A DNA stretch of 62,788 bases, the filler included, from Stramenopiles sp. TOSAG23-2 (lineage: Eukaryota), in assembly GCA_900128395.1 (NCBI GenBank). It is 9 parts of 9 records of this genome, joined end to end, with 100 filler letters (N's around TTAATTAATTAA, not from the genome) between each part and the next. Parts side by side here need not be neighbours in the genome. Positions count along the whole stretch, not along the records: positions 23,024 to 30,586 come from LT650301.1; 8 more parts are not named here. One strand, 5' to 3'. Both the position numbers and the translations under genes were made by a program. Shown here in pieces: positions 14,796 through 61,260 of this stretch. The notes below the pieces were generated by a model that did no database searches, was not told the origin of the DNA, and saw only the letters and a list, made by a program, of their open reading frames with translations. How positions within the stretch are numbered: position 1 is the stretch's first letter; every line of letters starts with the position of its first letter.

Positions 14796-15355
14796 AATAA
14801 TGATTTGATCGTATATCGTCTTGTATTATATTATTTATTATATTCTTCTTCTTTTCATATCTTACACTGTATGTTTCTTTATAATAATATATATATAATA
14901 ATATATATATTATAATTATTTTTTAACCTGACCCTAGTCGGAACACACGACGCACCTGACCCGGACACCCGACGACAGAAAGCAGAAAGCCTGGAAAGCC
15001 TTATACCACCTGGTGGTAGCCTGTGGAAAAGAAGCCCAAAATACCTGCCCTAAGGCCTGGTAAAAAGGAAAGCTGGAAAGCCAGAAAGCGAAAAAAGAGA
15101 AGATTTTAGTTGAGACAGTTTTATTATACGTATTATATACTTATTAGACTATTAAAAACAAAATAAATTTAAATTTTTATTATTTTGTTTTTGCTTTTTG
15201 TGTTGTGCTTGTTGGAAGAAGTTTCAACATGATTACGGTTAATACTCCGACGTTTNNNNNNNNNNNNNNNNNNNNNNNNNNNNNNNNNNNNNNNNNNNNT
15301 TAATTAATTAANNNNNNNNNNNNNNNNNNNNNNNNNNNNNNNNNNNNNNNNNNNN

Positions 15356-21682: not shown

Positions 21683-23327
21683 TAAATTCTAAATGAAGCT
21701 AGAAATCTTAATTATAAATATGAAACATAAAAAATTTTGATAAAATGTCGTAGTTTCTATATCATACGTGATATATTTAACTTTTCTCCGAGAGTTTACA
21801 TGTATAATTATGTTTTTAAAGAAAAGTGCTGAGATTTTTTTTTAAATCGTACATTAGCATGGGGTTAGTATTAGAGCACTTTTTCATCACAATGGTGAAA
21901 ATCAGGAAAGGTTGAAAACTTTCATTGAAGTTATTGATATTAGACTTTGAAACGTTGCATATCCGTTATTTATTACATATACAATAACTGTATGTCGTGG
22001 TCTGGGGAGTTTAGCTGTAGAACCATGTTTACTAAAAATATCGTGCATTTTGATCATTTACGTTAGGGTTAGAGATGCTAGCATTACTCAGCATTGCGGG
22101 GTCATACCCATACATGACGGGACCTCTCACTCTATTTTTCAACACCAACATACACTCACACGAATGCCATTTCTACACTTTCCCATTATATACGAAGCTG
22201 AAACCAATACCTAAAAGTCATATACTGATCACCTAAACAATTTCTGATCCTTCTCCTGTCCATACATAGGATATAAGTCGAGCTTTACACCGATATGTGA
22301 TTTTCAAGATCGGGTTAGTTTAGGGTTAGAGGCCAAAAAATGACCAAAATATTGAAATTTTTTCAGAAATATCACCAAAATACAATGTGTCGATTTTTTC
22401 TATCTAAATCTTCTACAAATTAATTCGAAATAAGACACATCTCTTAACACATGTCTAAACGAAAGAAGTACATGAATATTTTGATGTAATTATGTTTTTA
22501 ATGAAATTGACAAGGTATTGAATTTTTTTTAAAATGGTGATTTTTTTTCAAATTAGCATGGACATAGGCTGGACTAAAAATGGAAAATTTGAAAATTATA
22601 AAAGGTAGTTTATTGTACATACACATACATGACTTTAGCAAAATAAGTATCCACGATCAATTTATATATGTTTGGTAATAAATATATGACGTATCTTAAT
22701 ATTTCTGTATCTACTTCATATTTGAATGACCGTTAAAAGTTAAAAAAAACGCGTAACCCTATAGCTGTAACACTACTTGATAGGTGCTTTTTGCTTATAG
22801 TGTCGGCTCTTTCTTACATTTTTTAGTACAAAAATATTATACTAAATGTTTGATAGGTTTCAATCTTCTAAAAACGATATTTACAATTTATGTAAAAAAG
22901 TGAATTTCCATCTAAAATATGATNNNNNNNNNNNNNNNNNNNNNNNNNNNNNNNNNNNNNNNNNNNNTTAATTAATTAANNNNNNNNNNNNNNNNNNNNN
23001 NNNNNNNNNNNNNNNNNNNNNNNGCTCCATATGTTTTAAATGTTGGTGATGAGAATTTGTCATTGGGTACTACTAGTAGCGATACAAATTCGAAGTTGTA
23101 AAATAAGAAAAAAACCCAAAAAGAGTTTATGATATATATTAATACACGACATACAGGGATAGAGTGCAATCATGTATTGATGTACGCGTATTTTTTTAAT
23201 ATTTTATACTCCGGTATAAAATTATTTTTTTTAAATTTTAGTGTTTTATATTTTATATTTTAGATTAATGAGATGTTCATTATATATCATAAAAATACGT
23301 ATCGTACATATATACGAGTAAAATCCA

Positions 23328-25829
23328 TCATCGTTGATAAGAGAAAATTCCACTGGTACTAGGATCAAATGTAATGCCAGTATTAAAATCATTATTTCCA
23401 TAACTATTACTTCCAACTGTGGAGAAAATATCATCATTACCTAAAGACGAGATATCCGAGTTCATAGTAAATGTTTGTCCACCAACAGTAAATGTTGTTG
23501 GTATCGATTCAGGTTTTTTCGTTTCATTTGTAGATTTCTTCTTTCCAGATGATTTCAAAAATCCACCTTTAAAACCAGTTGATTTTTTTTTCTCTGCTTG
23601 TTGTTTTACTGCTGCTGTTTTTAATGGAGTTGGGGGTGGTGATTCATCATTTTTACCTTCTTTCGATTCAACTACACTTCTCTGTTTTTCTGCCTGTTTC
23701 TTCTTTTCTTCGTTTTTTACTACTACTACAGGTTTTTTCTTCTTCATCATCATTTTCTTTTCATCAAATATATCTGGCATCAATTCCCTAAATGCTGGAT
23801 CTGCTTTTAATACACCTTCAACTGCTTGTTTTGCATGTGCCATTTCTTTAATAGACATGATGTTAAATATGATTTGTGCTAAATTTCGTTTTTCTATTGG
23901 TACACTAAATGCTTCTGCCTTCGTCATTGGTTGGGCTAATGTCAATATGGTTAAAGTACGTTCGCCGCCAAAATCTGAAATAACTTTCATGATTGGACGA
24001 CGATAACGTGGTACACGATCTTTGAAATCGGATGTGCTGAAAAATCCATTGCTATTCGTAGATCGGCTTACTTTTTTATCTAATTCAATGCATTCCTTAT
24101 CCCGTATTTGGCAATATATACGTAATGCCGCCAATCGATTTTTAAGTGTATCTTTGATTTCATCAGCTGGTATCCATCCAGGTAATATTTGTCCAGATTC
24201 GCTTTTTTTATTGTCTTTTGTCCAACCAGTCGAAATCTCTAATAAACGTTTTACAACACCTTTGGCAGGAGGTCGTACGTTTGGATCTACAGAACGTGTT
24301 AATGTCTGGTAAACTTTTTCTTCCCATGATAAAACAACCTTTGCCTTGCTTTCCTCGTTTTTGGCAGTTTTTTTGCCACTATTATTGCTTGAATTGTTGC
24401 TACTATGATTGTTATTGCTAAACACAGGAATTTTTTTACCACCTTGTACTGCATCTAAAATAGCATCAATTTCACTTTGTTCGTTTGGAACGGAAAATTC
24501 AAATGACACTTTTGGAATAAATGGCATCCATTCAAATGATGTAGATGCAGTTGGAGAGGATGATTTGAATTTCACACGATATGCAACGTTGCTTAACATT
24601 TCCCCAGTTTTTACAATATCATTGATCAATATATCTCCACTGAAGCATAGACCAATTGGATTTCTACTACCTGCGCTCATCGCACAGTTGGACGTGCCAA
24701 ATAATACAACACGATCACCTTCATCCATACCAGTTGTTAATTTTGCTTTAGTACATAAATGTGGAAATAAAACTACACGCGCAGCATCAAAACCATCGTT
24801 CCATGGTGATGTTGCACATCCACTTGCATGGGAAGTCCATTTCTCATTTAATTTCAGTTCACTTTTCATATTTTCATATGCAGCTTTAAAGACGAAATCA
24901 AATGCTTTATCCCATTCTAATAATGTTTTTTTCGTAATGAAAAAACGTGCGTGGCCACGATCAACAACAATTGCAATGGCTAAATCACTAATTCCTTTCT
25001 CAACGTTTTCACATATAAATAATTTTTTCAAATCTTTGCTTGTGCTACCACCGTTAAATTTTTCAAATGCAACACATGCAATTTGTGGTTGTGATACACA
25101 CATTTTTTTATTGATAACCTGTACTTTCAGTAAAACTGATGCTTTATCAAACGTATTTGGCATTTCAATTTGTGATGGGTCAGATGCTATATATGTTTGA
25201 ATAGCATTCGCAATGTACTTGTTCTTAGCTTCTTCTGAAGTTAACTGTGCAAATCGAGAATATAACGATGGAACGTGCAAAGATCGTGTTTCTGAGTTAT
25301 TTTTGAAACCAATATTAAGCGTTGCACCATCACTTCCAAAGGCACACTTTGATGAATCAACATTTCCTAGTTTCATAGCCTCCAAGACTAAATTTTGTGC
25401 GAATTGACTAACTTCCTCGCGTTTTTTCTCTGTCTCTTTAATTGCTGATTTTATTGTTGCTCGGCCTTTTTGATATGCCTTTGCAGTTGGTTCAAGTTTA
25501 ACAGCTTCATCATATGAAGCTAAAGCATCTTTTAACCTACCATTGGCTTGCAAAGCAGTTGCACGACGTACCCATCCTTTTGCAAATGTAGGATCTATAT
25601 TTACAGTCTCATCAGCATCTGTAAATGCTTCGTCCAATTTGCCAAGTTTATAATGACACAATGAACGGTTACTGTATAATAAAACAATTTGTTTCCTAGC
25701 TTCCTCGTTGGTTTCATATATTTCTTTCGAAGCTTCAATTGCCGTTGTATAATGTTTTATTGCATTTTGATAATCTTGCTTTTTAAAAAATTCCGTACCA
25801 GTTGCTTTTGTTGATAATACAAATTCCAT
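23328..25829 (-). CDS. TPR-domain (STI1/TOM34-type) protein with central DUF1444-like domain
   Basis: KATGTEFFKKQDYQNAIKHYTTAI, LYSNRSLC, DPTFAKGWVRRA. Central LAIAIVVD..ITKKTLLEW..AAYENM..WNDGFDAARVVL. Confidence 0.75.
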   Translation of the reverse strand: MEFVLSTKATGTEFFKKQDYQNAIKHYTTAIEASKEIYETNEEARKQIVLLYSNRSLCHYKLGKLDEAFTDADETVNIDPTFAKGWVRRATALQANGRLKDALASYDEAVKLEPTAKAYQKGRATIKSAIKETEKKREEVSQFAQNLVLEAMKLGNVDSSKCAFGSDGATLNIGFKNNSETRSLHVPSLYSRFAQLTSEEAKNKYIANAIQTYIASDPSQIEMPNTFDKASVLLKVQVINKKMCVSQPQIACVAFEKFNGGSTSKDLKKLFICENVEKGISDLAIAIVVDRGHARFFITKKTLLEWDKAFDFVFKAAYENMKSELKLNEKWTSHASGCATSPWNDGFDAARVVLFPHLCTKAKLTTGMDEGDRVVLFGTSNCAMSAGSRNPIGLCFSGDILINDIVKTGEMLSNVAYRVKFKSSSPTASTSFEWMPFIPKVSFEFSVPNEQSEIDAILDAVQGGKKIPVFSNNNHSSNNSSNNSGKKTAKNEESKAKVVLSWEEKVYQTLTRSVDPNVRPPAKGVVKRLLEISTGWTKDNKKSESGQILPGWIPADEIKDTLKNRLAALRIYCQIRDKECIELDKKVSRSTNSNGFFSTSDFKDRVPRYRRPIMKVISDFGGERTLTILTLAQPMTKAEAFSVPIEKRNLAQIIFNIMSIKEMAHAKQAVEGVLKADPAFRELMPDIFDEKKMMMKKKKPVVVVKNEEKKKQAEKQRSVVESKEGKNDESPPPTPLKTAAVKQQAEKKKSTGFKGGFLKSSGKKKSTNETKKPESIPTTFTVGGQTFTMNSDISSLGNDDIFSTVGSNSYGNNDFNTGITFDPSTSGIFSYQR

Positions 25830-25958
25830 GATAGTTGTTGTTGTATTGACGTGTGTGTTTGTGTATATATATATTAATATATTAATTAACTTCTGGTATC
25901 TATCTATATATATATATTGTAAGAATATCTCTCTTATCTTACATATACCTTTCCTCTT

Positions 25959-26034
25959 NNNNNNNNNNNNNNNNNNNNNNNNNNNNNNNNNNNNNNNNNN
26001 NNNNNNNNNNNNNNNNNNNNNNNNNNNNNNNNNN
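25959..26034. other. Scaffold gap (76 N, no linker) with duplicated flanks
   Basis: 25890-25958 is nearly identical to 26035-26101, so the gap is probably an unmerged overlap. Confidence 0.85.
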
Positions 26035-26576
26035 CTTCTGGTATCTATCTATATATATATTGTAAGAATATATCTCTTATCTTACATATACCTTTCCTCT
26101 TGTTGCATGTCTTTTTAGTACGTATAGTAGTAGATTTAGATTATAAAAAAATATATATACTTTTGTTTGAATGGTTTTCAATGATGTGTGTATGCTATAA
26201 TAGCTGAGCTGGTAATTTTTTAAAATGCAAAAAATAGGCGGCTGTTTTAGTTTACGTTATATTCAAAATTTATAACCTTAATCTTCTCCTGAAAATTATG
26301 AAAATTATGAAAAAAGAAAAAAGAAATTAAAATGGGGTGCAAAAAGGCCAAAATGCCTTTTTTCCAGGCTTATATTATAATACTTCTTTCTTATTCTAGA
26401 TTTCCATATTTTCAACACACACTAGGAATAATTTCAAATAATAATAATAATATTAATATATATTTTAACATGACTATAATTCAATTCACATTTACATTAT
26501 TATATATTATATTTCAAACAAACAAAAGCAAATGATATGAAAACACAAAACTTATCAATAAAGACAAAGGAGCGCA

Positions 26577-27812
26577 ATGACAGATTCGCCCCCCAGTTCA
26601 ACATGGCTGTACATATTAAAACAACAAGAAATGGAAACGTTGCAACCAATGCAAGTTAGACGTGTAAATATACCAACGCATCGTACAAACACAATTCAAC
26701 AGTTTATAAATAATAATAGTGAAGATAATAACAATAGCGATAATTGTTGGTTAGAAATTGATCCACCTGAATTACCAGATAAATTACGTAATATCAAACC
26801 AAAAAGCATTCGTACGATCATTGCTAGTAATAGAAATAATAAGGGTGATGGTGTTAGCAATAGCAATATATCAAAGAAAAGGTCTCTTGAGGATAATGCG
26901 GCTTCTGCTACTACTAACAATAATGCTAAAAAACAAAAATTATTATTAGTACATAAATGGAAAGATTCTATAGACAATATCATATTAAAATTATCCAATC
27001 AACAGGAAAGAGGTAATGGTGCCAATGTAAATAATACAAGCAAAGTAGAAAATATTGTAGAAATAATTCAAGAAGCTGCTAGTCAAAGCATATCTCAAAA
27101 AAATATGAAAAGTATATGCAAAATGCTTCAAGTTCATTTTGGGGAAAATGATGTTAAAATTTTAAATTTTTTCATTTCATTAAGTGATAAAATTGGTGGT
27201 ACAAATTACAATACAATAGTTAATACGATTATGTACCCGCGAGCAATCTCATTAAAGCGCACTGCATCTCGCTCCTTCATGAATGCAATTAATGAAATTC
27301 ATAAAAATGGTTCAAGAGCTTTGCTTACAGGAATTATGATTCCATTAATTACGATAAATATAAAGAATGATAATACAAATCGAGAAGGATCACTACATAT
27401 GAATTCACGCTCACCACAGATTGAATTATTAACTCGTATATTGAAAATTACTACTCCATCAACTGCATTACTGTTCCTTTCTGCATCTTTGACCGAAGTA
27501 GATCAGCAAAAACATAATAAAAAGATGTTACCATGGAATGAATTTACTTTCCCATTGTTGAAAACGTTAATATCAAAGCCATTTGATTTAAATAATGATA
27601 GTAATAGCAATATGTGTAAAAAATTAATTGATAAAATTGAGAAACATTCAAAAGAATTTTCAAAATCGTTGAAATTTGTATCTGTCATAAATGCATTAAT
27701 AGTGAAACACAAAGAGGTAGCAAAGGTATATAAAATCAGTTTAGAAAGAGCTTTGGCGAATACGAACACGTTCTTGAGTAAGACTACTTTAAAATTATTA
27801 AACAAATTGTAA
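26577..27812 (+). CDS. FANCE: Fanconi anemia group E (FANCE) C-terminal-domain protein
   Basis: LKRTASRSF, SPQIELLTRIL, PWNE.TF..L, FSKSLKF...L..KH, L..AL..TNTFL.K match the FANCE C-terminal helical repeats. Confidence 0.75.
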   Translation: MTDSPPSSTWLYILKQQEMETLQPMQVRRVNIPTHRTNTIQQFINNNSEDNNNSDNCWLEIDPPELPDKLRNIKPKSIRTIIASNRNNKGDGVSNSNISKKRSLEDNAASATTNNNAKKQKLLLVHKWKDSIDNIILKLSNQQERGNGANVNNTSKVENIVEIIQEAASQSISQKNMKSICKMLQVHFGENDVKILNFFISLSDKIGGTNYNTIVNTIMYPRAISLKRTASRSFMNAINEIHKNGSRALLTGIMIPLITINIKNDNTNREGSLHMNSRSPQIELLTRILKITTPSTALLFLSASLTEVDQQKHNKKMLPWNEFTFPLLKTLISKPFDLNNDSNSNMCKKLIDKIEKHSKEFSKSLKFVSVINALIVKHKEVAKVYKISLERALANTNTFLSKTTLKLLNKL

Positions 27813-28049
27813 AAGAAGAGCGCGCGCGCGTGTGTGTGTGTAAAATAAATACTTCGTAATCTCGTACTTCTACCCTTGTTCGTAAAATAAACTGTACAAA
27901 ACTGTACACATCTCTCTCCTATTCATATACTTTTTGCAATATTTCCACCAAAATTGCTAAAAAGACGACCCACCCCTCTAAAACGACCTACCCCTCTTTT
28001 CTCTATTTGAAATTTTTGTTGTAATAAAACCTAGTTAAACGTGTGGCAA

Positions 28050-30407
28050 TTATCTTCTATTACTGCTGCTGCTGCTGCTACTACTACTACTAGAGCTTGT
28101 TGAAGTCGCACCTTCATTATTACGGACATTCTTATATGCCTTCAAACCTTCTTTAATTTTCAAAGAATATGGTGATTCAAATTTGTCTGTAAAATACATT
28201 TGCAATTCATCTGCTTCGCAAATATCTTCTAAATATTTCTTGACTTGAGCCTTTCTTGTTCTAATATTAGAAACAAGTCTTGTGGTTTCCTCATCTGTTG
28301 ATACCCCAAGCGCGTCAAAATCTTTAAATTTTTCCAATGAAGCTTGCAACGCATCTGTCCATGCTTCCAAATTATAATGGTTGCATTCCAATAAACTTGC
28401 GTATTGTGACTCTTTTTGAACATAATATTTTGCAACATAAATCCATTTCAAAGCATTTCGTACTTCTTTCAATGTCTTAGTAGCATCAATTAACGATTCA
28501 GACTGTGCATATGCCGTATTTGAAGTTAAATCTTTTTGCCAATCACTAAATATTTTCATTCTATCGTTTGCATGTCCAACACTTGATTCTTGAAAGTTAA
28601 AACGTTCAACGTGAAATTCATATTTCTTCAACGCTTCTTTTTTTGATTCTTCAAAAGTTTTTGCTGCGAACGCAACAGCACTTTCGCCTGTTAATTTCCC
28701 AGATTTTCCTAATTCTTCGTATTTTGTGCATGCGTAGAAACCTCCTGTACCATTTCCATGTTCGCTCCATTTTCCTTTACAAAGCCAGCAAAATTGGTAT
28801 CCGCAACCACCCTTTTCTTTGTAACATGTAACATGCATGCAGCCACCATCTTTCCAAATACGTTTCTTGCATTTAGGGCATGATTTTACATTTTGATCAG
28901 TCCATAAATCAGCACGTGTTTTGCCTTTAAATAATTTTCGTTCCTGGACACTCCACGCTTCTGCATTTTCACAACTCAATGGATTATGATCTTCTTTTAA
29001 GCACCCCCAACAAAATATATGACCACATGGACAATCAATTTTACGAGTTACTGAGTTTATCTTTGGATAATGAAATACTTGTCCACATCCTTTAGGGCAA
29101 TAATTAAAACATTTATTTTCATTGATATATGATTGTAAATAAAACTTTTGAAATGACTTTAAAGATGGTGGTGTAGAAACCGCTTTTACCAAATCTTTTG
29201 TAATAATTTTTTTACATTGTGGCGACGGACAACATGTAAATACACTGTGTGGACCACTTTGAAATTTACTACCAAGATGGTTTTGCCAACAGGATTTACA
29301 ATAGTAATGTTTACAAGACAATGCCGCTGTCAATTCTGTACATGGTAATTTCTTTAATTGAGCATATGTTTTTTCACTTCTTGCTCTATCATTATTATTA
29401 CTAGCGTTGCCATTTATATCTGACAATCTTTTCTTTGCTTTTGCCAAGCCTTTTGCAGGATTTTTAGCCCCTAATTTCTTTAAATGCTTAAAAAAATCGA
29501 CTTGACGATTATTGAACATCTCCCCACACGCATCATTTAATGAATGTCCCCAATTAGGTACGATAAATAATTCTGATATAGCTTCACATAAATGTAATAA
29601 TGTATTCATAGGTGACCAATCAGAATTTAACATCGATAAACAAACTGTACCATCATCAGGACTAATATTTGGATGAAACACTTTTTTCGAATCATCAATA
29701 CATACAACAGATTTAGGTTGTGCAAATGGATATTCACTTACTGGTAATGTTATGGAAAAGCGCGAGACAATGCCGTCCCACATGCCTTTACATTTAACGG
29801 TAATTTCAAAAATAGATATATCTTGTTCATTTGGTAAATTCACTTCGAATTTTTTCATCAATTCTTTAAGTTGCCTGTTAATTGCTTTGACACCTTTCGT
29901 TGGTTGCACCTTTTTACGACGTTTTTTAAGTGGTTGAGATCCAGTAGTTCGAATACCTTCCTTAACAGCTTGTTTTTGCAATAATTTATCAGGGCACCCA
30001 TGGCATATTTCACATATACCTTCACTAATCGACGATATTTCATCATCGAAATGTAAAGGACCGGCCTTTGGTAAACCAGCTTTAGAAACTAAGATATCAC
30101 GATTTTCTTGTATCAATGCATCTGTTGCGCCTCTCCACCAACAATCGATTATATGTTCTGAATTCCAATGATGTGACAATAACAAGGTTGCAGCAAATGA
30201 CTTTGAAACACCGCAACTATCTATTACTCGCTGAATTTCCCTTTCTTTCAAAGATGGTATTTGATCTTCCTTTAATAATTCATATGAGTCTGTACGTTTT
30301 AAACCTTGTGGCTGAAACTTCCCGCCTGTACTACTACTACTGCTTCCGGACTTTGCACCACCACACCAGCACACCACGTGCACAACAACTACAACTCTGG
30401 ACACCAC
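28050..30407 (-). CDS. Ariadne-family RBR E3 ubiquitin ligase with UBC (E2) domain inserted in RING1; 5' end uncertain
   Basis: UBA-like (AATLLLSHHWN). RING1: CEIC...CKHYYCKSC...CPSPQC. IBR: CPKGC..CPCGHIFCWGC..H.P..C. Rcat: CPKC..IWKDGGCMHVTC..C..FCWLC. Ariadne helical domain. UBC: YPFAQP..FHPNI..G.VCL.ML..DWSP. Confidence 0.88.
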   Translation of the reverse strand: MVSRVVVVVHVVCWCGGAKSGSSSSSTGGKFQPQGLKRTDSYELLKEDQIPSLKEREIQRVIDSCGVSKSFAATLLLSHHWNSEHIIDCWWRGATDALIQENRDILVSKAGLPKAGPLHFDDEISSISEGICEICHGCPDKLLQKQAVKEGIRTTGSQPLKKRRKKVQPTKGVKAINRQLKELMKKFEVNLPNEQDISIFEITVKCKGMWDGIVSRFSITLPVSEYPFAQPKSVVCIDDSKKVFHPNISPDDGTVCLSMLNSDWSPMNTLLHLCEAISELFIVPNWGHSLNDACGEMFNNRQVDFFKHLKKLGAKNPAKGLAKAKKRLSDINGNASNNNDRARSEKTYAQLKKLPCTELTAALSCKHYYCKSCWQNHLGSKFQSGPHSVFTCCPSPQCKKIITKDLVKAVSTPPSLKSFQKFYLQSYINENKCFNYCPKGCGQVFHYPKINSVTRKIDCPCGHIFCWGCLKEDHNPLSCENAEAWSVQERKLFKGKTRADLWTDQNVKSCPKCKKRIWKDGGCMHVTCYKEKGGCGYQFCWLCKGKWSEHGNGTGGFYACTKYEELGKSGKLTGESAVAFAAKTFEESKKEALKKYEFHVERFNFQESSVGHANDRMKIFSDWQKDLTSNTAYAQSESLIDATKTLKEVRNALKWIYVAKYYVQKESQYASLLECNHYNLEAWTDALQASLEKFKDFDALGVSTDEETTRLVSNIRTRKAQVKKYLEDICEADELQMYFTDKFESPYSLKIKEGLKAYKNVRNNEGATSTSSSSSSSSSSSSNRR

Positions 30408-30741
30408 AGAAGTAAAAGGTAAAAAAAAAGCTATAAATAATGATGTGCAAATAGAGGTATATGTGTCTCCTCTGATTATTATTAAAATAATGCAATGTAC
30501 AGTATAATCAGTAAAGTATAATGGAATTTAATATTAATATACATAATACACACAACTGCGTATCTCATTTCTAAAATATATAACCTNNNNNNNNNNNNNN
30601 NNNNNNNNNNNNNNNNNNNNNNNNNNNNNNTTAATTAATTAANNNNNNNNNNNNNNNNNNNNNNNNNNNNNNNNNNNNNNNNNNNNTCCGCCATAGTTGA
30701 TAAGTCGTGATTCAAAACATCCCATTGCCTACTAAACGCAC

Positions 30742-32205
30742 CTAATCATCATCATCATCGTCATCGTCATCGTCATCATCTATTATCTTTGCAGCTACTT
30801 TTTGTTTTTTTCGCACTGGTTGTTTAACTATTTCTTCGTCGTCGTCGTCGTCATCATCATCATCATCATCTTCCAATGGCCTTTTTGCTGATTTTGTTGT
30901 GGTGGTAGCAGTAGTCGTCGTAGTAGTAGTTGTTGTGGTGGCTGGCGCTTTTTTCTCTTTATCATCATCCTGTTCTTCATCATCCTCTTCCTCCATAACA
31001 TCTTCCTTTGCTGCGTTTCGTTGTGCTGCACGTTCTGCTCTGGATTGTTTATTGTTGTTGTTGTTACTCAATGTTCTTCCAGCATCCCATTCTTCCTCTT
31101 CGTCGTCGTCATCATCAGATGGAGAATCATTATCTTCTTCCAAATAATTTGCCGATAAAGGGCCACTATTAGCATATTCATCAAACCTATCTACTTTCGA
31201 TCTACGTCTTTGTCGTTCCAATGCTTGTATTTCCTTCTCCTCTGCTTTCCATCTATCTTCATCGTCTTTCTCTGGATCAGTAATTGTCACTGTGCGCTTA
31301 ATTAAGTCTTGTTTACTCTTTTTCTTCGCACGTGATTTTTGTTGTAAACGTACTAATTCTTTATGCGATTTGCTATTTACACTGGATGGTTTCACGGACC
31401 AACGGGATTTTACATAATCACCAGCACATTCAAGGACCGTATCAGCTTCAGCATCAGGTGGTTTGTTCATGACTTGCTTATATACCCAATGTTGATGCTG
31501 CGGTAATGGTTTGACATCGATATCTAAAAGCTCGTTCCCAATTTGTATCGATTTGGTACCATCGCTCCATGATATGATTCTTGCATTACTTTCAGTTACT
31601 TTATTGCCTTTTTCATCCATAGCAATTGTACCATCTTTATTTTTTTTATATCGCCAACGTATAATATTTAAATATCTTTTGTTCCCATGTTCATCCGTAT
31701 TCCATGTAGCATCCGCCGTTTTGTCAAAATTTTCCGAGTCGTATCCTTTTGTTTGTATGCCAACCAATCGACTTGTACGGATCATATTAATATCACCAGA
31801 AATTTCAAAACGTGGTGGCAAAAATAAATTCTCAGTGGGTCTATGAATATTTTTCTTATTTTGTCCTAAATTATTATTTTTACTATCATTTCTTGAGCTA
31901 CTATCATCAACCTCACCAGTACGTGTTTTAACAGTAGATTTGATATCATTATCCTCATCACTATCATCAGAAGAACTGTCATCATCATCGTCGTCATCAC
32001 TACCACTACCAAATAAATCATCCATATCGTCCTCTTTCTTCTCTGTAGTAGTATCAGCCTTTGGTTTAAGTTCACTACTACCACCATTTGTTGTTGTTTG
32101 TTCTACTGCTACTTCTTCATTATCATCATCAGAAGACGAAGAATCATCCGATCCAGAAAATAACGATTCTTCTTTTTCCATTTCTTTTGCTTGCTCTTCC
32201 GCCAT
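30742..32205 (-). CDS. LEO1: RNA polymerase-associated protein LEO1 (Paf1 complex)
   Basis: NIIRWR...ESNARIISWSDGTKSIQIGNE, PSSVNSKSH, DPEK, LSANYLEE; acidic termini. Confidence 0.9.
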   Translation of the reverse strand: MAEEQAKEMEKEESLFSGSDDSSSSDDDNEEVAVEQTTTNGGSSELKPKADTTTEKKEDDMDDLFGSGSDDDDDDDSSSDDSDEDNDIKSTVKTRTGEVDDSSSRNDSKNNNLGQNKKNIHRPTENLFLPPRFEISGDINMIRTSRLVGIQTKGYDSENFDKTADATWNTDEHGNKRYLNIIRWRYKKNKDGTIAMDEKGNKVTESNARIISWSDGTKSIQIGNELLDIDVKPLPQHQHWVYKQVMNKPPDAEADTVLECAGDYVKSRWSVKPSSVNSKSHKELVRLQQKSRAKKKSKQDLIKRTVTITDPEKDDEDRWKAEEKEIQALERQRRRSKVDRFDEYANSGPLSANYLEEDNDSPSDDDDDEEEEWDAGRTLSNNNNNKQSRAERAAQRNAAKEDVMEEEDDEEQDDDKEKKAPATTTTTTTTTTATTTTKSAKRPLEDDDDDDDDDDDEEIVKQPVRKKQKVAAKIIDDDDDDDDDDDD

Positions 32206-32398
32206 GATTATTGGTCTTTTCCTATAAGTACTTTTACTATGTAATATTTTGTTAGTAAATATCCATTCACACTTTCTATTATTATACTATATATATAAGT
32301 ATATATAACATGTACATCATATAATAATAATTATTAATAATCTTATTATTGGTGATCATCAATTTATTCATTTTTTGTTGTTGATTTTTTGGGCACTT

Positions 32399-37639: not shown

Positions 37640-38345
37640 AGATAAGGAATAAGTAGTATACACAAATATATAGAAAAATAAAATATATAATATTTATATA
37701 TATATGATATAAAAGGCGAGAGGGATGTAAACGTGTAGACTTTAAAACATTACCAGGTATATTCATATTTTAGTCTGGAAAAAGTAATATTCTTCTCCTA
37801 GGTAATTAGATTACCTGGTAATGCCTATCTATAATTTAGTTGCTTTCCTATATTCCCTGGTATTCTAGAACCTATAGAAGAACTGCAACAACTTCCAGAA
37901 CCCAGAACTTACATTTTGTTTTGTCGAGGAGATCAGCACATAAGGGGGATAATTTAGTACTTGGTAGTATAATAAACAGTAGCTATGATTATCACTTTTT
38001 CCAGCCTGATTAAAAATAATTTCAGCAAAAACGAAAATGTTTGGATCTTCAAATTTGTACAGAGGTATTTTAACACAGTATAATGATACAACTATGTTAT
38101 TCCTTTATATATATCTATGCTGAAACAAAACAAAACAATATACGGTTTTGTATAAGAAATAAATATGTCACATACAACAAGAAGACATTGATTAAATTTA
38201 TGAAAAGAAAATTGACAAAGAAACTACTACAACAATAATAATAGTNNNNNNNNNNNNNNNNNNNNNNNNNNNNNNNNNNNNNNNNNNNNTTAATTAATTA
38301 ANNNNNNNNNNNNNNNNNNNNNNNNNNNNNNNNNNNNNNNNNNNN

Positions 38346-45529: not shown

Positions 45530-45988
45530 TGGCTATGATACTTGAGAAAGAGGCTGACAATTACATACGTGGGCATTTAAAATGTAAGAGACGAACATTT
45601 TTATGGACAATAATCCACCACGTACGAACTTACTTAAAAAAAAATAAAGAGCTGAAGAGCGCTAGATCAAAAAAAAATACGGGTTCGTATATTATTAATA
45701 ATATTAAATTTTCTCTTAACTTAAATTAATTTTATTTTTAAAATAATATACGAAGTATGATGATAATTATTCTACACATGCATATAAATAATATTCATAA
45801 TATCAAAACAAGTATCATAATTTATAATTTATAAAAAAGTATTTTTATATTAATACACACGACACACGCGGAGCAACAGGAGAGTGTTNNNNNNNNNNNN
45901 NNNNNNNNNNNNNNNNNNNNNNNNNNNNNNNNTTAATTAATTAANNNNNNNNNNNNNNNNNNNNNNNNNNNNNNNNNNNNNNNNNNNN

Positions 45989-53388: not shown

Positions 53389-54186
53389 AAGCTAAAGGTG
53401 ATAAAAATACGATCTCGTATGGCTCAAATCGACAAAAAACATCCCAGGTGCTGTGTAGGCGTAACTAAAATAAGCTAATTTTATGTAATGATATATACAT
53501 GCTAAATTTAAGCGCATGGGCTCTTCCNNNNNNNNNNNNNNNNNNNNNNNNNNNNNNNNNNNNNNNNNNNNTTAATTAATTAANNNNNNNNNNNNNNNNN
53601 NNNNNNNNNNNNNNNNNNNNNNNNNNNATATAGATTGTTATACTCGGTAGAATATTAATATTGGTTCCATTTCCTACGTTCACAACCTATTGCCTGCTAT
53701 ACCGCATCTACTGAATTTCCATGCCTTTACATTTTAAATCATGGAATGCTATATACATGCTAAAAATAAATTCGGCCACCTTTTTGAGAAAAAAAATGGC
53801 CACCTTTTTGATCTTTACCTACCCTTTGATCCTTTGATGTGTACACGTGTGTGGGACACAGTCCCCTTATAATAAAATAGATATATAACATAAAATAACA
53901 CTATAAAAACTTGTACATATATAATATATTCTAAGATAAACATTATTCCTTATTTTTTATATAATTTATTTCCTTTAATTTATTTCCTTTGAAACCCCTA
54001 CACATCAGGGCAGGGAATTCAACTTCTATGGCATTCATCTCAATATAAGAACATATATATAAAATATATATATGTATGTATAAACTGTGAATATACATGT
54101 ATACATCGATATAGTATAATAATTTAAATGGGCATCACCTTGAAGCGATTGTAGAGAGAGAGAGAGAGGATAATTAATATTTTGGA

Positions 54187-60476: not shown

Positions 60477-61260
60477 AATATATAATATATATATTAAATA
60501 TGTGTATATTATATTAGTACCAATTAAAATGCATTAAATAAAAAAACTCATTTTTAATTTAATTTATACGAACTCATCAAATGATAAATTCTTATGCATA
60601 CTCTCCAGAAAAAAAGTTTAATTTATAAAAAGTTAAACAAGAATAAAAAAACTTAAACTCCTCTTCTCTCTGACTGTACTGTATCCTCTCGTGGGATATA
60701 TTTAAATTGTACCTAGGTACAATTTAAGGACCATAGGAATAGCATTATTCTAATACTGTATCAATAGTCTTCAACTACATAGACACAGCATCTCGAACGC
60801 ATCAAAATTTTGATAGACTATTTATTCATTTTGTACTTGAAGTATACAATTTTATGCGCTACCTTTATAGGAAACTAGTCGCCAAAATATTAAAATCCCA
60901 TTATAATACGTTATAAATAAATCGTGAAAAAGATACCAAAAATATGACAAAAAAATAAAAACTCGATTAATCAGTTTAATATGAATACATCACCTTTAAA
61001 ATAGTTACCGTTAGTTGAAGTGTGGATTATGATATTTATTGGATTTTGATACATATTCATGAGCTTGTAATTCAAATTCTACTTGTCCAAATTATATGTT
61101 TGATATATGTATATGAAACTTTTTTATGTGTAGAATCGATTTATGTGGTCAAATTGGTGTNNNNNNNNNNNNNNNNNNNNNNNNNNNNNNNNNNNNNNNN
61201 NNNNTTAATTAATTAANNNNNNNNNNNNNNNNNNNNNNNNNNNNNNNNNNNNNNNNNNNN

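Follow-up and report, generated by a model that had tools for sequence, protein, structure and literature searches.

What defines RBR ligases is that an E2, recruited as a separate protein, hands its cargo over to a cysteine of the E3 itself. A gene in a 62,788-nucleotide stretch of DNA from Stramenopiles sp. TOSAG23-2 (GenBank assembly GCA_900128395.1; this whole stretch is hereafter the window) raises the question of whether both partners can reside in one chain. The gene encodes an Ariadne-type RBR protein, and an E2 (UBC) domain with a catalytic cysteine of its own lies inside the RING1 domain. Is this join real, and what might a protein of this kind do? We conclude that the conserved architecture, an E2 looped into an Ariadne RING1, is almost certainly real. 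Our favored explanation, to which we give an even chance, is a family of Ariadne-type RBR proteins in which an intact E2 is looped out of RING1 on two flexible linkers and acts with the E3 module as a single-chain relay.

The gene occupies a stop-free frame of 825 codons at 28050–30527, ends with a TAA stop at 28050–28052, and lies in DNA of about 33% G+C. This frame and all features of the gene given below are on the minus strand, and residues are numbered according to its translation (P0001). The coding part within the window comprises 28050–30364 (residues 55–825), over which RNA contigs are colinear with the genome as far as 30364; the 5′ end is lacking. Toward the N terminus is a putative UBA-like domain of the Ariadne type (30135–30239, residues 97–131), modeled as helices with high pLDDT (predicted local distance difference test) values. 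Its match to the Pfam family UBA_ARI1 is weak in the window protein, at 14.2 bits and thus under the cut-off of 26.9, and the same region scores above the cut-off in the relatives P0017 (30.0 bits) and P0012 (32.8 bits).

The first two zinc ligands of RING1 follow as C172-E-I-C175 (30003–30014), with Ile174 between them. The chain then leaves RING1 through an N-side linker (29895–30002, residues 176–211) that contains a short helix and a basic KKRRKK run directly before the E2. The UBC domain itself (29460–29894, residues 212–356 by the envelope of the family hidden Markov model, or HMM) has pLDDT values of 73–92, and Pfam UQ_con matches residues 220–350 with 67.9 bits against a cut-off of 27 (E 9e-19). 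It carries the HPN motif at 29667–29675 (residues 285–287) and the catalytic cysteine C296, in GTVCL, at 29640–29642. A low-complexity C-side linker (29316–29459, residues 357–404) leads back to RING1, whose ligands 3–8 (C405, H407, C410, C413, C433, and C438) lie at 29214–29315, with CKHYYCKSC starting from 29315 and CPSPQC at 29231–29214, so that the last RING1 pair is of the form C-x4-C. All eight zinc ligands of a C3HC4 RING1 are therefore present, divided by an insert that places 229 residues between ligands 2 and 3 (C175 to C405).

The remainder of the chain has the order expected of an Ariadne protein. An IBR (BRcat) domain at 28971–29156 (residues 458–519; Pfam IBR, 61.5 bits) is followed by an Rcat (RING2) domain at 28764–28892 (residues 546–588; Pfam IBR_1, 47 bits, and IBR_2, 40.3 bits). 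Aligned to the Rcat of ARIH1, the latter presents catalytic Cys563 in GGCMH (28839–28841), with His565 after it. ARIH1 is also the best solved match of the part after the insert (115.7 bits, compared with 102.5 for ARIH2 and 59.6 for CUL9); its alignment includes the second half of RING1, which falls on the second part of ARIH1 RING1, and continues for about 135 residues beyond Rcat through the helical Ariadne domain (28308–28739, approximately residues 597–740), ending at residue 740.

At the level of sequence, every Ariadne RBR feature open to examination is present, the UBA-like score in the window protein apart. The insert likewise has the sequence features of an active E2, namely the UBC fold, HPN, and the catalytic cysteine, and is predicted to form a thioester. 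These results bear out much of the original prediction, which had described an Ariadne-type RBR ligase whose RING1 is interrupted by about 230 residues holding a complete UBC domain with HPN and a catalytic cysteine, and whose Rcat cysteine is intact in the same uninterrupted frame. The positions it gave for CEIC, CKHYYCKSC, CPSPQC, HPN, GTVCL, and GGCMH all hold; the one correction is that the 5′ end of the gene lies outside the window.

Before any function is considered, it must be asked whether the parts of this sequence truly belong together. The arrangement could be an artefact, either because the assembly joined unrelated pieces or because the mature mRNA lacks the E2 segment, which would then be an intron or an optional exon. 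Three observations lend themselves to this suspicion: the window strings together short contigs of a fragmentary assembly, 42 in-frame GT...AG combinations could in principle excise the insert, and one RNA contig ceases to match the genome at 30364, which indicates that the contig end is not wholly reliable. However, the RNA data point the other way. The sequence is present in runs of 15 studies of marine or seawater samples, and polyA RNA contigs from four runs of four studies are colinear with the genome over both junctions, without a splice joint anywhere over the gene. The upstream junction, from the first cysteine pair into the E2, is spanned by X15 record 8 (29820–30271) and X19 record 24 (29970–30118). 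The E2 interior is covered by X16 records 12–14 and X19 records 22–23, and the downstream junction, where the E2 passes by way of the linker to the second half of RING1, is spanned by X19 record 21 (29127–29495), X17 record 19 (29262–29497), and X15 record 7 (29273–29477). None of the 42 GT...AG combinations is used by any RNA contig.

Gaps in this cover, such as 29520–29789 for X15 and from 29520 on for X17, carry no information, and RNA libraries can contain DNA. Because RNA contigs can drop rare variants and isoforms, a minor spliced isoform may exist beside the colinear transcript. The protein from an independent assembly, P0002, is 100% identical across the region searched, and at least 12 other genes from divergent organisms hold the E2 in frame between the two halves of RING1. 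We therefore regard the gene as a genuine one of a marine eukaryote, and an artefact as highly improbable and already close to refuted; the transcript check proposed with the original prediction revealed neither a chimeric join nor splicing. A further copy of the gene from another assembly, P0004 (270 aa, 95–98% identical), lacks two separate single residues of the E2 and shifts frame past the C-x-H-x2-C-x2-C of RING1; it looks like the product of a poor or error-rich contig and not like a separate gene.

The homologue search that had been suggested alongside the RNA comparison uncovered a deep family of the same architecture, with at least 20 divergent relatives whose identity goes down to about 25%. 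When the RING1-plus-E2 part was scored against 1.84 billion representative proteins, 1513 matches were obtained at E ≤0.001 and 10 at E ≤1e-30, and a profile search of a larger collection added three full-length members. With an HMM of the family E2, 22 proteins score at least 139 bits and all other E2s at most 111 bits; as family members went into this HMM, the informative part is how the non-family E2s rank. UQ_con is above its cut-off in all 10 relatives scanned, and IBR is as well in eight of these, the other two being truncated. The members, which come from ENA, JGI (where they are labeled only “ubiquitin-protein ligase”), NCBI, and Logan, are 22–40% identical to the window protein over its whole length.

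The two halves of RING1 were then counted around the E2 in 26 family sequences, three of which are copies of the window's gene. A C-x2-C pair occurs 22–71 residues upstream of the E2 in every one of the 17 sequences that have at least 100 residues before it. On the other side, C-x-H-x2-C-x2-C is found 33–120 residues after the E2 in 17 of the 26; among the other nine, two end within the E2 and seven stop shortly after a conserved ET[VI]AMV. Both halves can be seen in 13 sequences. The N-side linker varies in length and sequence across the family, and its basic run recurs. HPN and the catalytic cysteine are kept in all 20 family E2 domains compared.

Several features of individual branches may be mentioned here. 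In one subclade (P0009, P0011–P0015, and P0018), the gene calls end a few residues past ET[VI]AMV, just before the expected RING1 C-x-H, which suggests a conserved intron in this lineage where the C-side linker meets the second half of RING1. Another subclade (P0022, P0027, and P0040) has an extra loop in the E2, a shorter Rcat motif, and, as C-terminal additions, a WWE domain (39.1 bits in P0027) together with a RanBP2-type zinc finger; WWE domains of other ligases bind poly(ADP-ribose). In several subclades, the basic run (KKRRKK in the window, 29895–29945) is followed by K-G-[VI]-K-A-I-x-R-Q-L-K before the first helix of the E2 (columns 255–285 of alignment A1). The basic run and the K-G-[VI]-K motif could serve as a nuclear localization signal or form part of an E1-binding surface.

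From which E2 is the insert derived, and can its ancestry reveal which modifier it carries? The original prediction had likened the insert to Ubc12 and UBE2F rather than to Ubc4/5, and had proposed that it carries NEDD8 or couples neddylation to the Ariadne module. Compared with solved chains on its own, the window sequence yields no clear winner: a Naegleria E2 is at the top with 45.8 bits, UBE2H-like chains and PEX4 are next, and UBE2M is fifth with 42 bits. A profile of 10 family E2 domains (A2) is more discriminating. Human UBE2M, in three constructs, scores 92.7, 86.4, and 82.0 bits, ahead of the Naegleria E2 (78.9 bits), yeast Ubc12 (78.4 bits), UBE2A/B (about 77–75 bits), UBE2D (about 74 bits), and UBE2F (71.8 bits). 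The likeness to Ubc12 over Ubc4/5 is thus retained for UBE2M, whereas UBE2F is no closer to the family than is UBE2D.

Two trees of E2 domains, drawn from a sample that holds only the E2s most similar to the query, are consistent with this ranking and also limit it. The first contains 132 domains, after two near-copies of the window's gene and 20 rows matching fewer than 105 HMM positions were left out. In this tree, the 20 insert E2s group together (SH-aLRT 96), next to groups of 64 and 48. The group of 64 is Ubc12-like, in that all four sampled members match Ubc12/UBE2M best, and it contains every one of the 18 non-family E2s that score highest with the family HMM; two sampled members of the group of 48 are UBE2S and UBE2H. 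The second, more careful tree has 60 rows, made up of the 20 insert E2s and 20 from each of the other groups, with the four longest branches excluded. The insert clade is supported there at 97/92, the Ubc12-like group at 99/96, and the remaining E2s at 99/95, and the three groups join at one node of the unrooted tree.

By profile score, Ubc12 is the nearest known E2 to the insert E2s, and the Ubc12 group may be their sister. The inserts are nevertheless placed outside the Ubc12 family, as a clade of their own. That they constitute one clade fits a single old insertion.

Individual residues tell a similarly mixed story. The Trp of GMW is found in 20 of 20 family members, in 45 of 64 Ubc12-like E2s, and in only 3 of the 48 others. 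After PN, by contrast, the family has Trp in 19 of 20 members where Ubc12-like and other E2s mostly have Pro. The Asn two residues past the catalytic cysteine (52/64 in the Ubc12-like group) is retained in just 3 of 20 family members. Opposite the cleft Asp in PEDPL of UBE2M, which is Asp in 58 of 64 Ubc12-like E2s, the family has His in 15 of 20 members, Ser in three, and Asn in one; by alignment with UBE2M, the window protein has His328 at this site (29544–29546).

These data can be used to weigh an explanation in which the protein is a NEDD8-coupled enzyme. A Ubc12-derived E2, charged by the NEDD8 E1, would either neddylate the cullin that activates the Ariadne module of the same chain or pass NEDD8 to the Rcat cysteine. 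Such a role would be in keeping with the first place of UBE2M by family profile, with the Ubc12-like identity of the 18 nearest non-family E2s, and with the shared GMW Trp. It also agrees with the established activation of ARIH1 and ARIH2 by neddylated cullins (cf. the available portions of PMC3817463 and PMC8460447). Yet the insert E2s stand apart from a Ubc12-like group that is closed against them, have mostly exchanged its cleft Asp for His, and seldom keep its Asn beyond the cysteine, and UBE2F fares no better than UBE2D. Ubc12 uses a free N-terminal extension to dock on the NEDD8 E1 and DCN1, and the insert E2, as an internal domain preceded by at least 211 residues, has no such extension. 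We therefore consider a NEDD8-coupled enzyme unlikely, and the proposal that the insert carries NEDD8 or couples neddylation to Ariadne activation gains no support from our analysis.

The His in the cleft offers a different lead. By the alignment to UBE2M and the numbering of UBE2D, we take this position to be the equivalent of D117 in UBE2D. According to the accessible text of PMC5095918, His119 of UBE2L3 occupies the place of UBE2D1 D117, a residue that orients the incoming lysine, and UBE2L3~Ub reacts with thiols only, its partners being HECT and RBR ligases. The His in most family members suggests an E2 that, like UBE2L3, may be tuned to cysteine acceptors.

If the E2 does serve its own E3, RING1 would have to retain the means to bind it. 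Of 14 distinct motifs from 17 sequences, 13 have I, L, or V between the first two RING1 ligands, and P0157 has Gly. We take the position of I174, by the numbering of HHARI, to be that of HHARI I188, in agreement with residue numbers in the available text of PMC5462532. As described in that text, the HHARI RING1 double mutant I188A/Y215A has no detectable ligase activity, and a C-x4-C extension of HHARI Zn-loop II holds the bound E2~Ub open and so favors transfer to the E3 cysteine (PMC5462532). On the side of the E2, a Phe at the YPF-loop position in 12 of 20 family members is a further hint.

An AlphaFold2 model made from a 16-row alignment of the family has a mean pLDDT of 75.7. The region of the first cysteine pair reaches 76–85 and the second half of RING1 82–89, the Ariadne region is modeled as long helices, and both linkers fall below 50 (model residues 137–154 and 318–329). 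In a Foldseek comparison with the PDB, ARIH2 and ARIH1 are the top matches, followed by canonical E2s at a TM score of about 0.8; the E2 domain superimposes on solved E2s with root-mean-square deviations of 2.0–2.9 over approximately 147–150 columns. In this model, the individual domains are confidently folded and their mutual arrangement is undefined. The linkers are probably flexible.

On the basis of these features, the single-chain relay that we favor might proceed as follows. RING1 would fold around two zinc ions, with the E2 looped out of zinc loop I, and an E1 would charge the E2 cysteine C296. The tethered E2~modifier would then dock in the open state on its own RING1, which retains two features suited to this, a hydrophobic residue between its first two ligands and the long C-x4-C form of zinc loop II. 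From there, the modifier would move by transthiolation to Rcat Cys563 and subsequently to a substrate. The Ariadne domain would keep the relay autoinhibited, and gating would presumably depend on a neddylated cullin complex, as it does for ARIH1 and ARIH2. With His at the D117 position, reactivity toward lysine may have been given up for this hand-off. Judged from sequence, a transfer from the E2 to Rcat in cis has, in our estimation, slightly less than an even chance of being correct.

A number of observations weigh against this relay or leave it less secure than the architecture itself. The equivalent of HHARI Y215 is His in the window protein and is variable across the family. The position equivalent to F63, in the YPF loop, is Phe in 12 of 20 family E2s and another residue in the other eight, and the D117-equivalent is Ser in three members and Asn in one. 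The likeness to UBE2L3 comes down to that one position, and the 60 best solved matches do not include UBE2L3, whether the single sequence or the family profile is the query. The predicted TM score (pTM) of the model is only 0.42. Variants of the RNA contigs over the gene comprise 6 synonymous and 14 nonsynonymous changes; they are few and of low depth, so purifying selection is not shown by these data alone. Finally, the 5′ end of the gene is lacking in the window.

Some of the same observations could be accommodated if there were no relay at all. The E2 might be an intramolecular plug or regulator of RING1, or else a docking module (for example, for the RBX1 RING, as Ubc12 is), with a free E2 serving the RBR module. 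The insertion is in the RING1 zinc loop that adjoins the E2-binding surface, where it could compete with free E2s; the F63-equivalent varies, and the low pTM provides no fixed arrangement of the domains. It is hard, however, to explain a purely structural domain in which HPN and the catalytic cysteine are invariant among members whose overall identity is as low as 25–35%. Inactive E2-like folds are also a poor description of the insert: Pfam UEV is far below UQ_con in the window protein (13.2 versus 67.9 bits), as is RWD in P0017 (16.6 versus 64.6 bits), and the grouping with UEV or RWD domains that would have spoken against an active E2 is not seen. A role without a relay thus strikes us as quite improbable.

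An equally doubtful variant of the single-chain relay is one in which a Ubc12-derived E2 that acts only on cysteines is charged with NEDD8 or another ubiquitin-like protein and hands it to the Rcat cysteine in cis. If this were true, these proteins would be RBR ligases for a non-ubiquitin modifier, the first of that kind, or else a device through which both NEDD8 and ubiquitin are attached to a single cullin complex.

How does this protein compare with known systems? ARIH1/HHARI and ARIH2/TRIAD1 have the same order of RING1, IBR, Rcat, and Ariadne domains, preceded by a UBA-like region that is putative in the window protein, and share the C-x4-C zinc loop II and the Cys-x-His of Rcat. They differ in recruiting a separate E2, UBE2L3, where the window protein has its 229-residue E2 insert. 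Ubc12/UBE2M shares with the insert E2s the GMW Trp and an LF..PN....LN pattern. The insert E2s differ from it in forming their own clade, in their lack of a free N-terminal extension, in the His that replaces Asp, in the Trp after PN, and in the unconserved Asn past the cysteine. UBE2L3/UbcH7 has in common the His at the D117 position and, presumably, a partnership with an Ariadne RBR module, but is a free protein with no detectable closer sequence kinship to the insert E2.

Enzymes that unite an E2 with other functions are known as well. UBE2O and BIRC6 resemble the window protein in combining a UBC domain and substrate-selecting parts in one polypeptide, but are without an RBR module and a second catalytic cysteine; according to the abstract of PMC12818219, these two alone among E2s need no E3 to ubiquitinate substrates. 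Engineered fusions (RING1B-UbcH5c, RNF168-UbcH5c, BRCA1-UbcH5c, and UbcH5B-MIB1 RING3) likewise tether an E2 covalently to a RING. These are man-made, end-to-end, and based on canonical RINGs, whereas the present case is a natural insertion in the RING1 zinc loop of an RBR protein.

The literature searched contains no account of an RBR protein with a UBC domain inside it, in line with the original prediction, although the supplementary domain tables of surveys may list the combination. It is absent from the available portions of three surveys of ubiquitin-system architectures (PMC4327156, PMC2408969, and PMC11354881). The large Ariadne clusters listed by a protein atlas contain no UQ_con domain, which we treat as a lead only. 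What is described here is a new and conserved arrangement of known domains and known chemistry.

Evolution has placed an E2 inside the domain that docks E2s, with both catalytic cysteines kept through deep divergence, and zinc loop I of a RING evidently tolerates the insertion of a whole domain. How a RING1-bound E2~Ub meets Rcat is still studied by means of engineered traps and fusions. If a relay in cis is true, two ubiquitin-relay steps would sit in one protein, and the family would provide a natural minimal E2-E3 machine and a stoichiometric E2-RBR complex for structures of transthiolation. An E2 of Ubc12 ancestry with His at the D117 position would, in addition, be a test case for the cysteine specificity of E2s. 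More broadly, protist lineages hold designs of the ubiquitin system that are absent from model organisms.

Where, then, does the gene begin? There is no ATG in frame before residue 213, and the contig stops 60 bases upstream of the frame, where the gene's own piece of the window (23024–30586) meets a linker join (30587–30686, N44-TTAATTAATTAA-N44) that is outside the gene. A polyA RNA contig, X19 record 25, agrees with the genome as far as 30364, beyond which its sequence is unrelated but coding-like, still in frame, and rich in Asn, Ser, and Gly. These three observations together place the 5′ end outside the window. Relatives start with an acidic stretch of about 80–100 residues. A 20-base motif taken from the upstream sequence of the RNA contig has no match in the window with up to three mismatches allowed, which indicates that no other piece of the window carries the missing beginning of the gene. 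At 30364 itself the genome lacks an AG acceptor; a good-looking pyrimidine tract with CAG is located at 30397–30430. The last approximately 220 bases of the contig may represent an intron that lacks a standard acceptor, sequence that differs between strains, or a contig end of poor quality.

Other searches with parts of the protein gave little beyond the family itself. A word-index search with the E2 alone retrieved only the gene's own copies (2 matches among 19 candidates), and Rfam gave no match at its gathering score. In the protein atlas, the whole relative P0017 falls among ordinary Ariadne clusters with scores of at most 0.84, too low to use. The nearest large atlas cluster to the E2-plus-RING1 part, with 83 members, is a giant-virus (Nucleocytoviricota) combination of UQ_con and a C3HC4 RING; its score of 0.76 is too low to imply kinship. 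The cluster hints, however, that giant viruses possess E2-RING fusions of a different sort.

The window as a whole is a chain of contigs of about 7.56 kb, slowly decreasing in size, with the same linker between them. The joins are at 7583–7682, 15256–15355, 22924–23023, and 30587–30686, with further ones at 38246–38345, 45889–45988, 53528–53627, and 61161–61260; a separate gap of 76 Ns is found at 25959–26034. Because the contigs are joined in this way, gene neighborhoods across the joins are meaningless. Thus, a homologue of Leo1 of the Paf1 complex (99 bits; 30745–32208, minus strand) is on the next contig and is not a true neighbor. The gene's own contig carries a TPR protein (23331–25832, minus strand), and an open reading frame of 411 residues at 26577–27812 on the plus strand has a sub-threshold match to FANCE only (20.2 bits). 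These three are all long intron-free frames with runs of Asp, Ser, Thr, and Asn.

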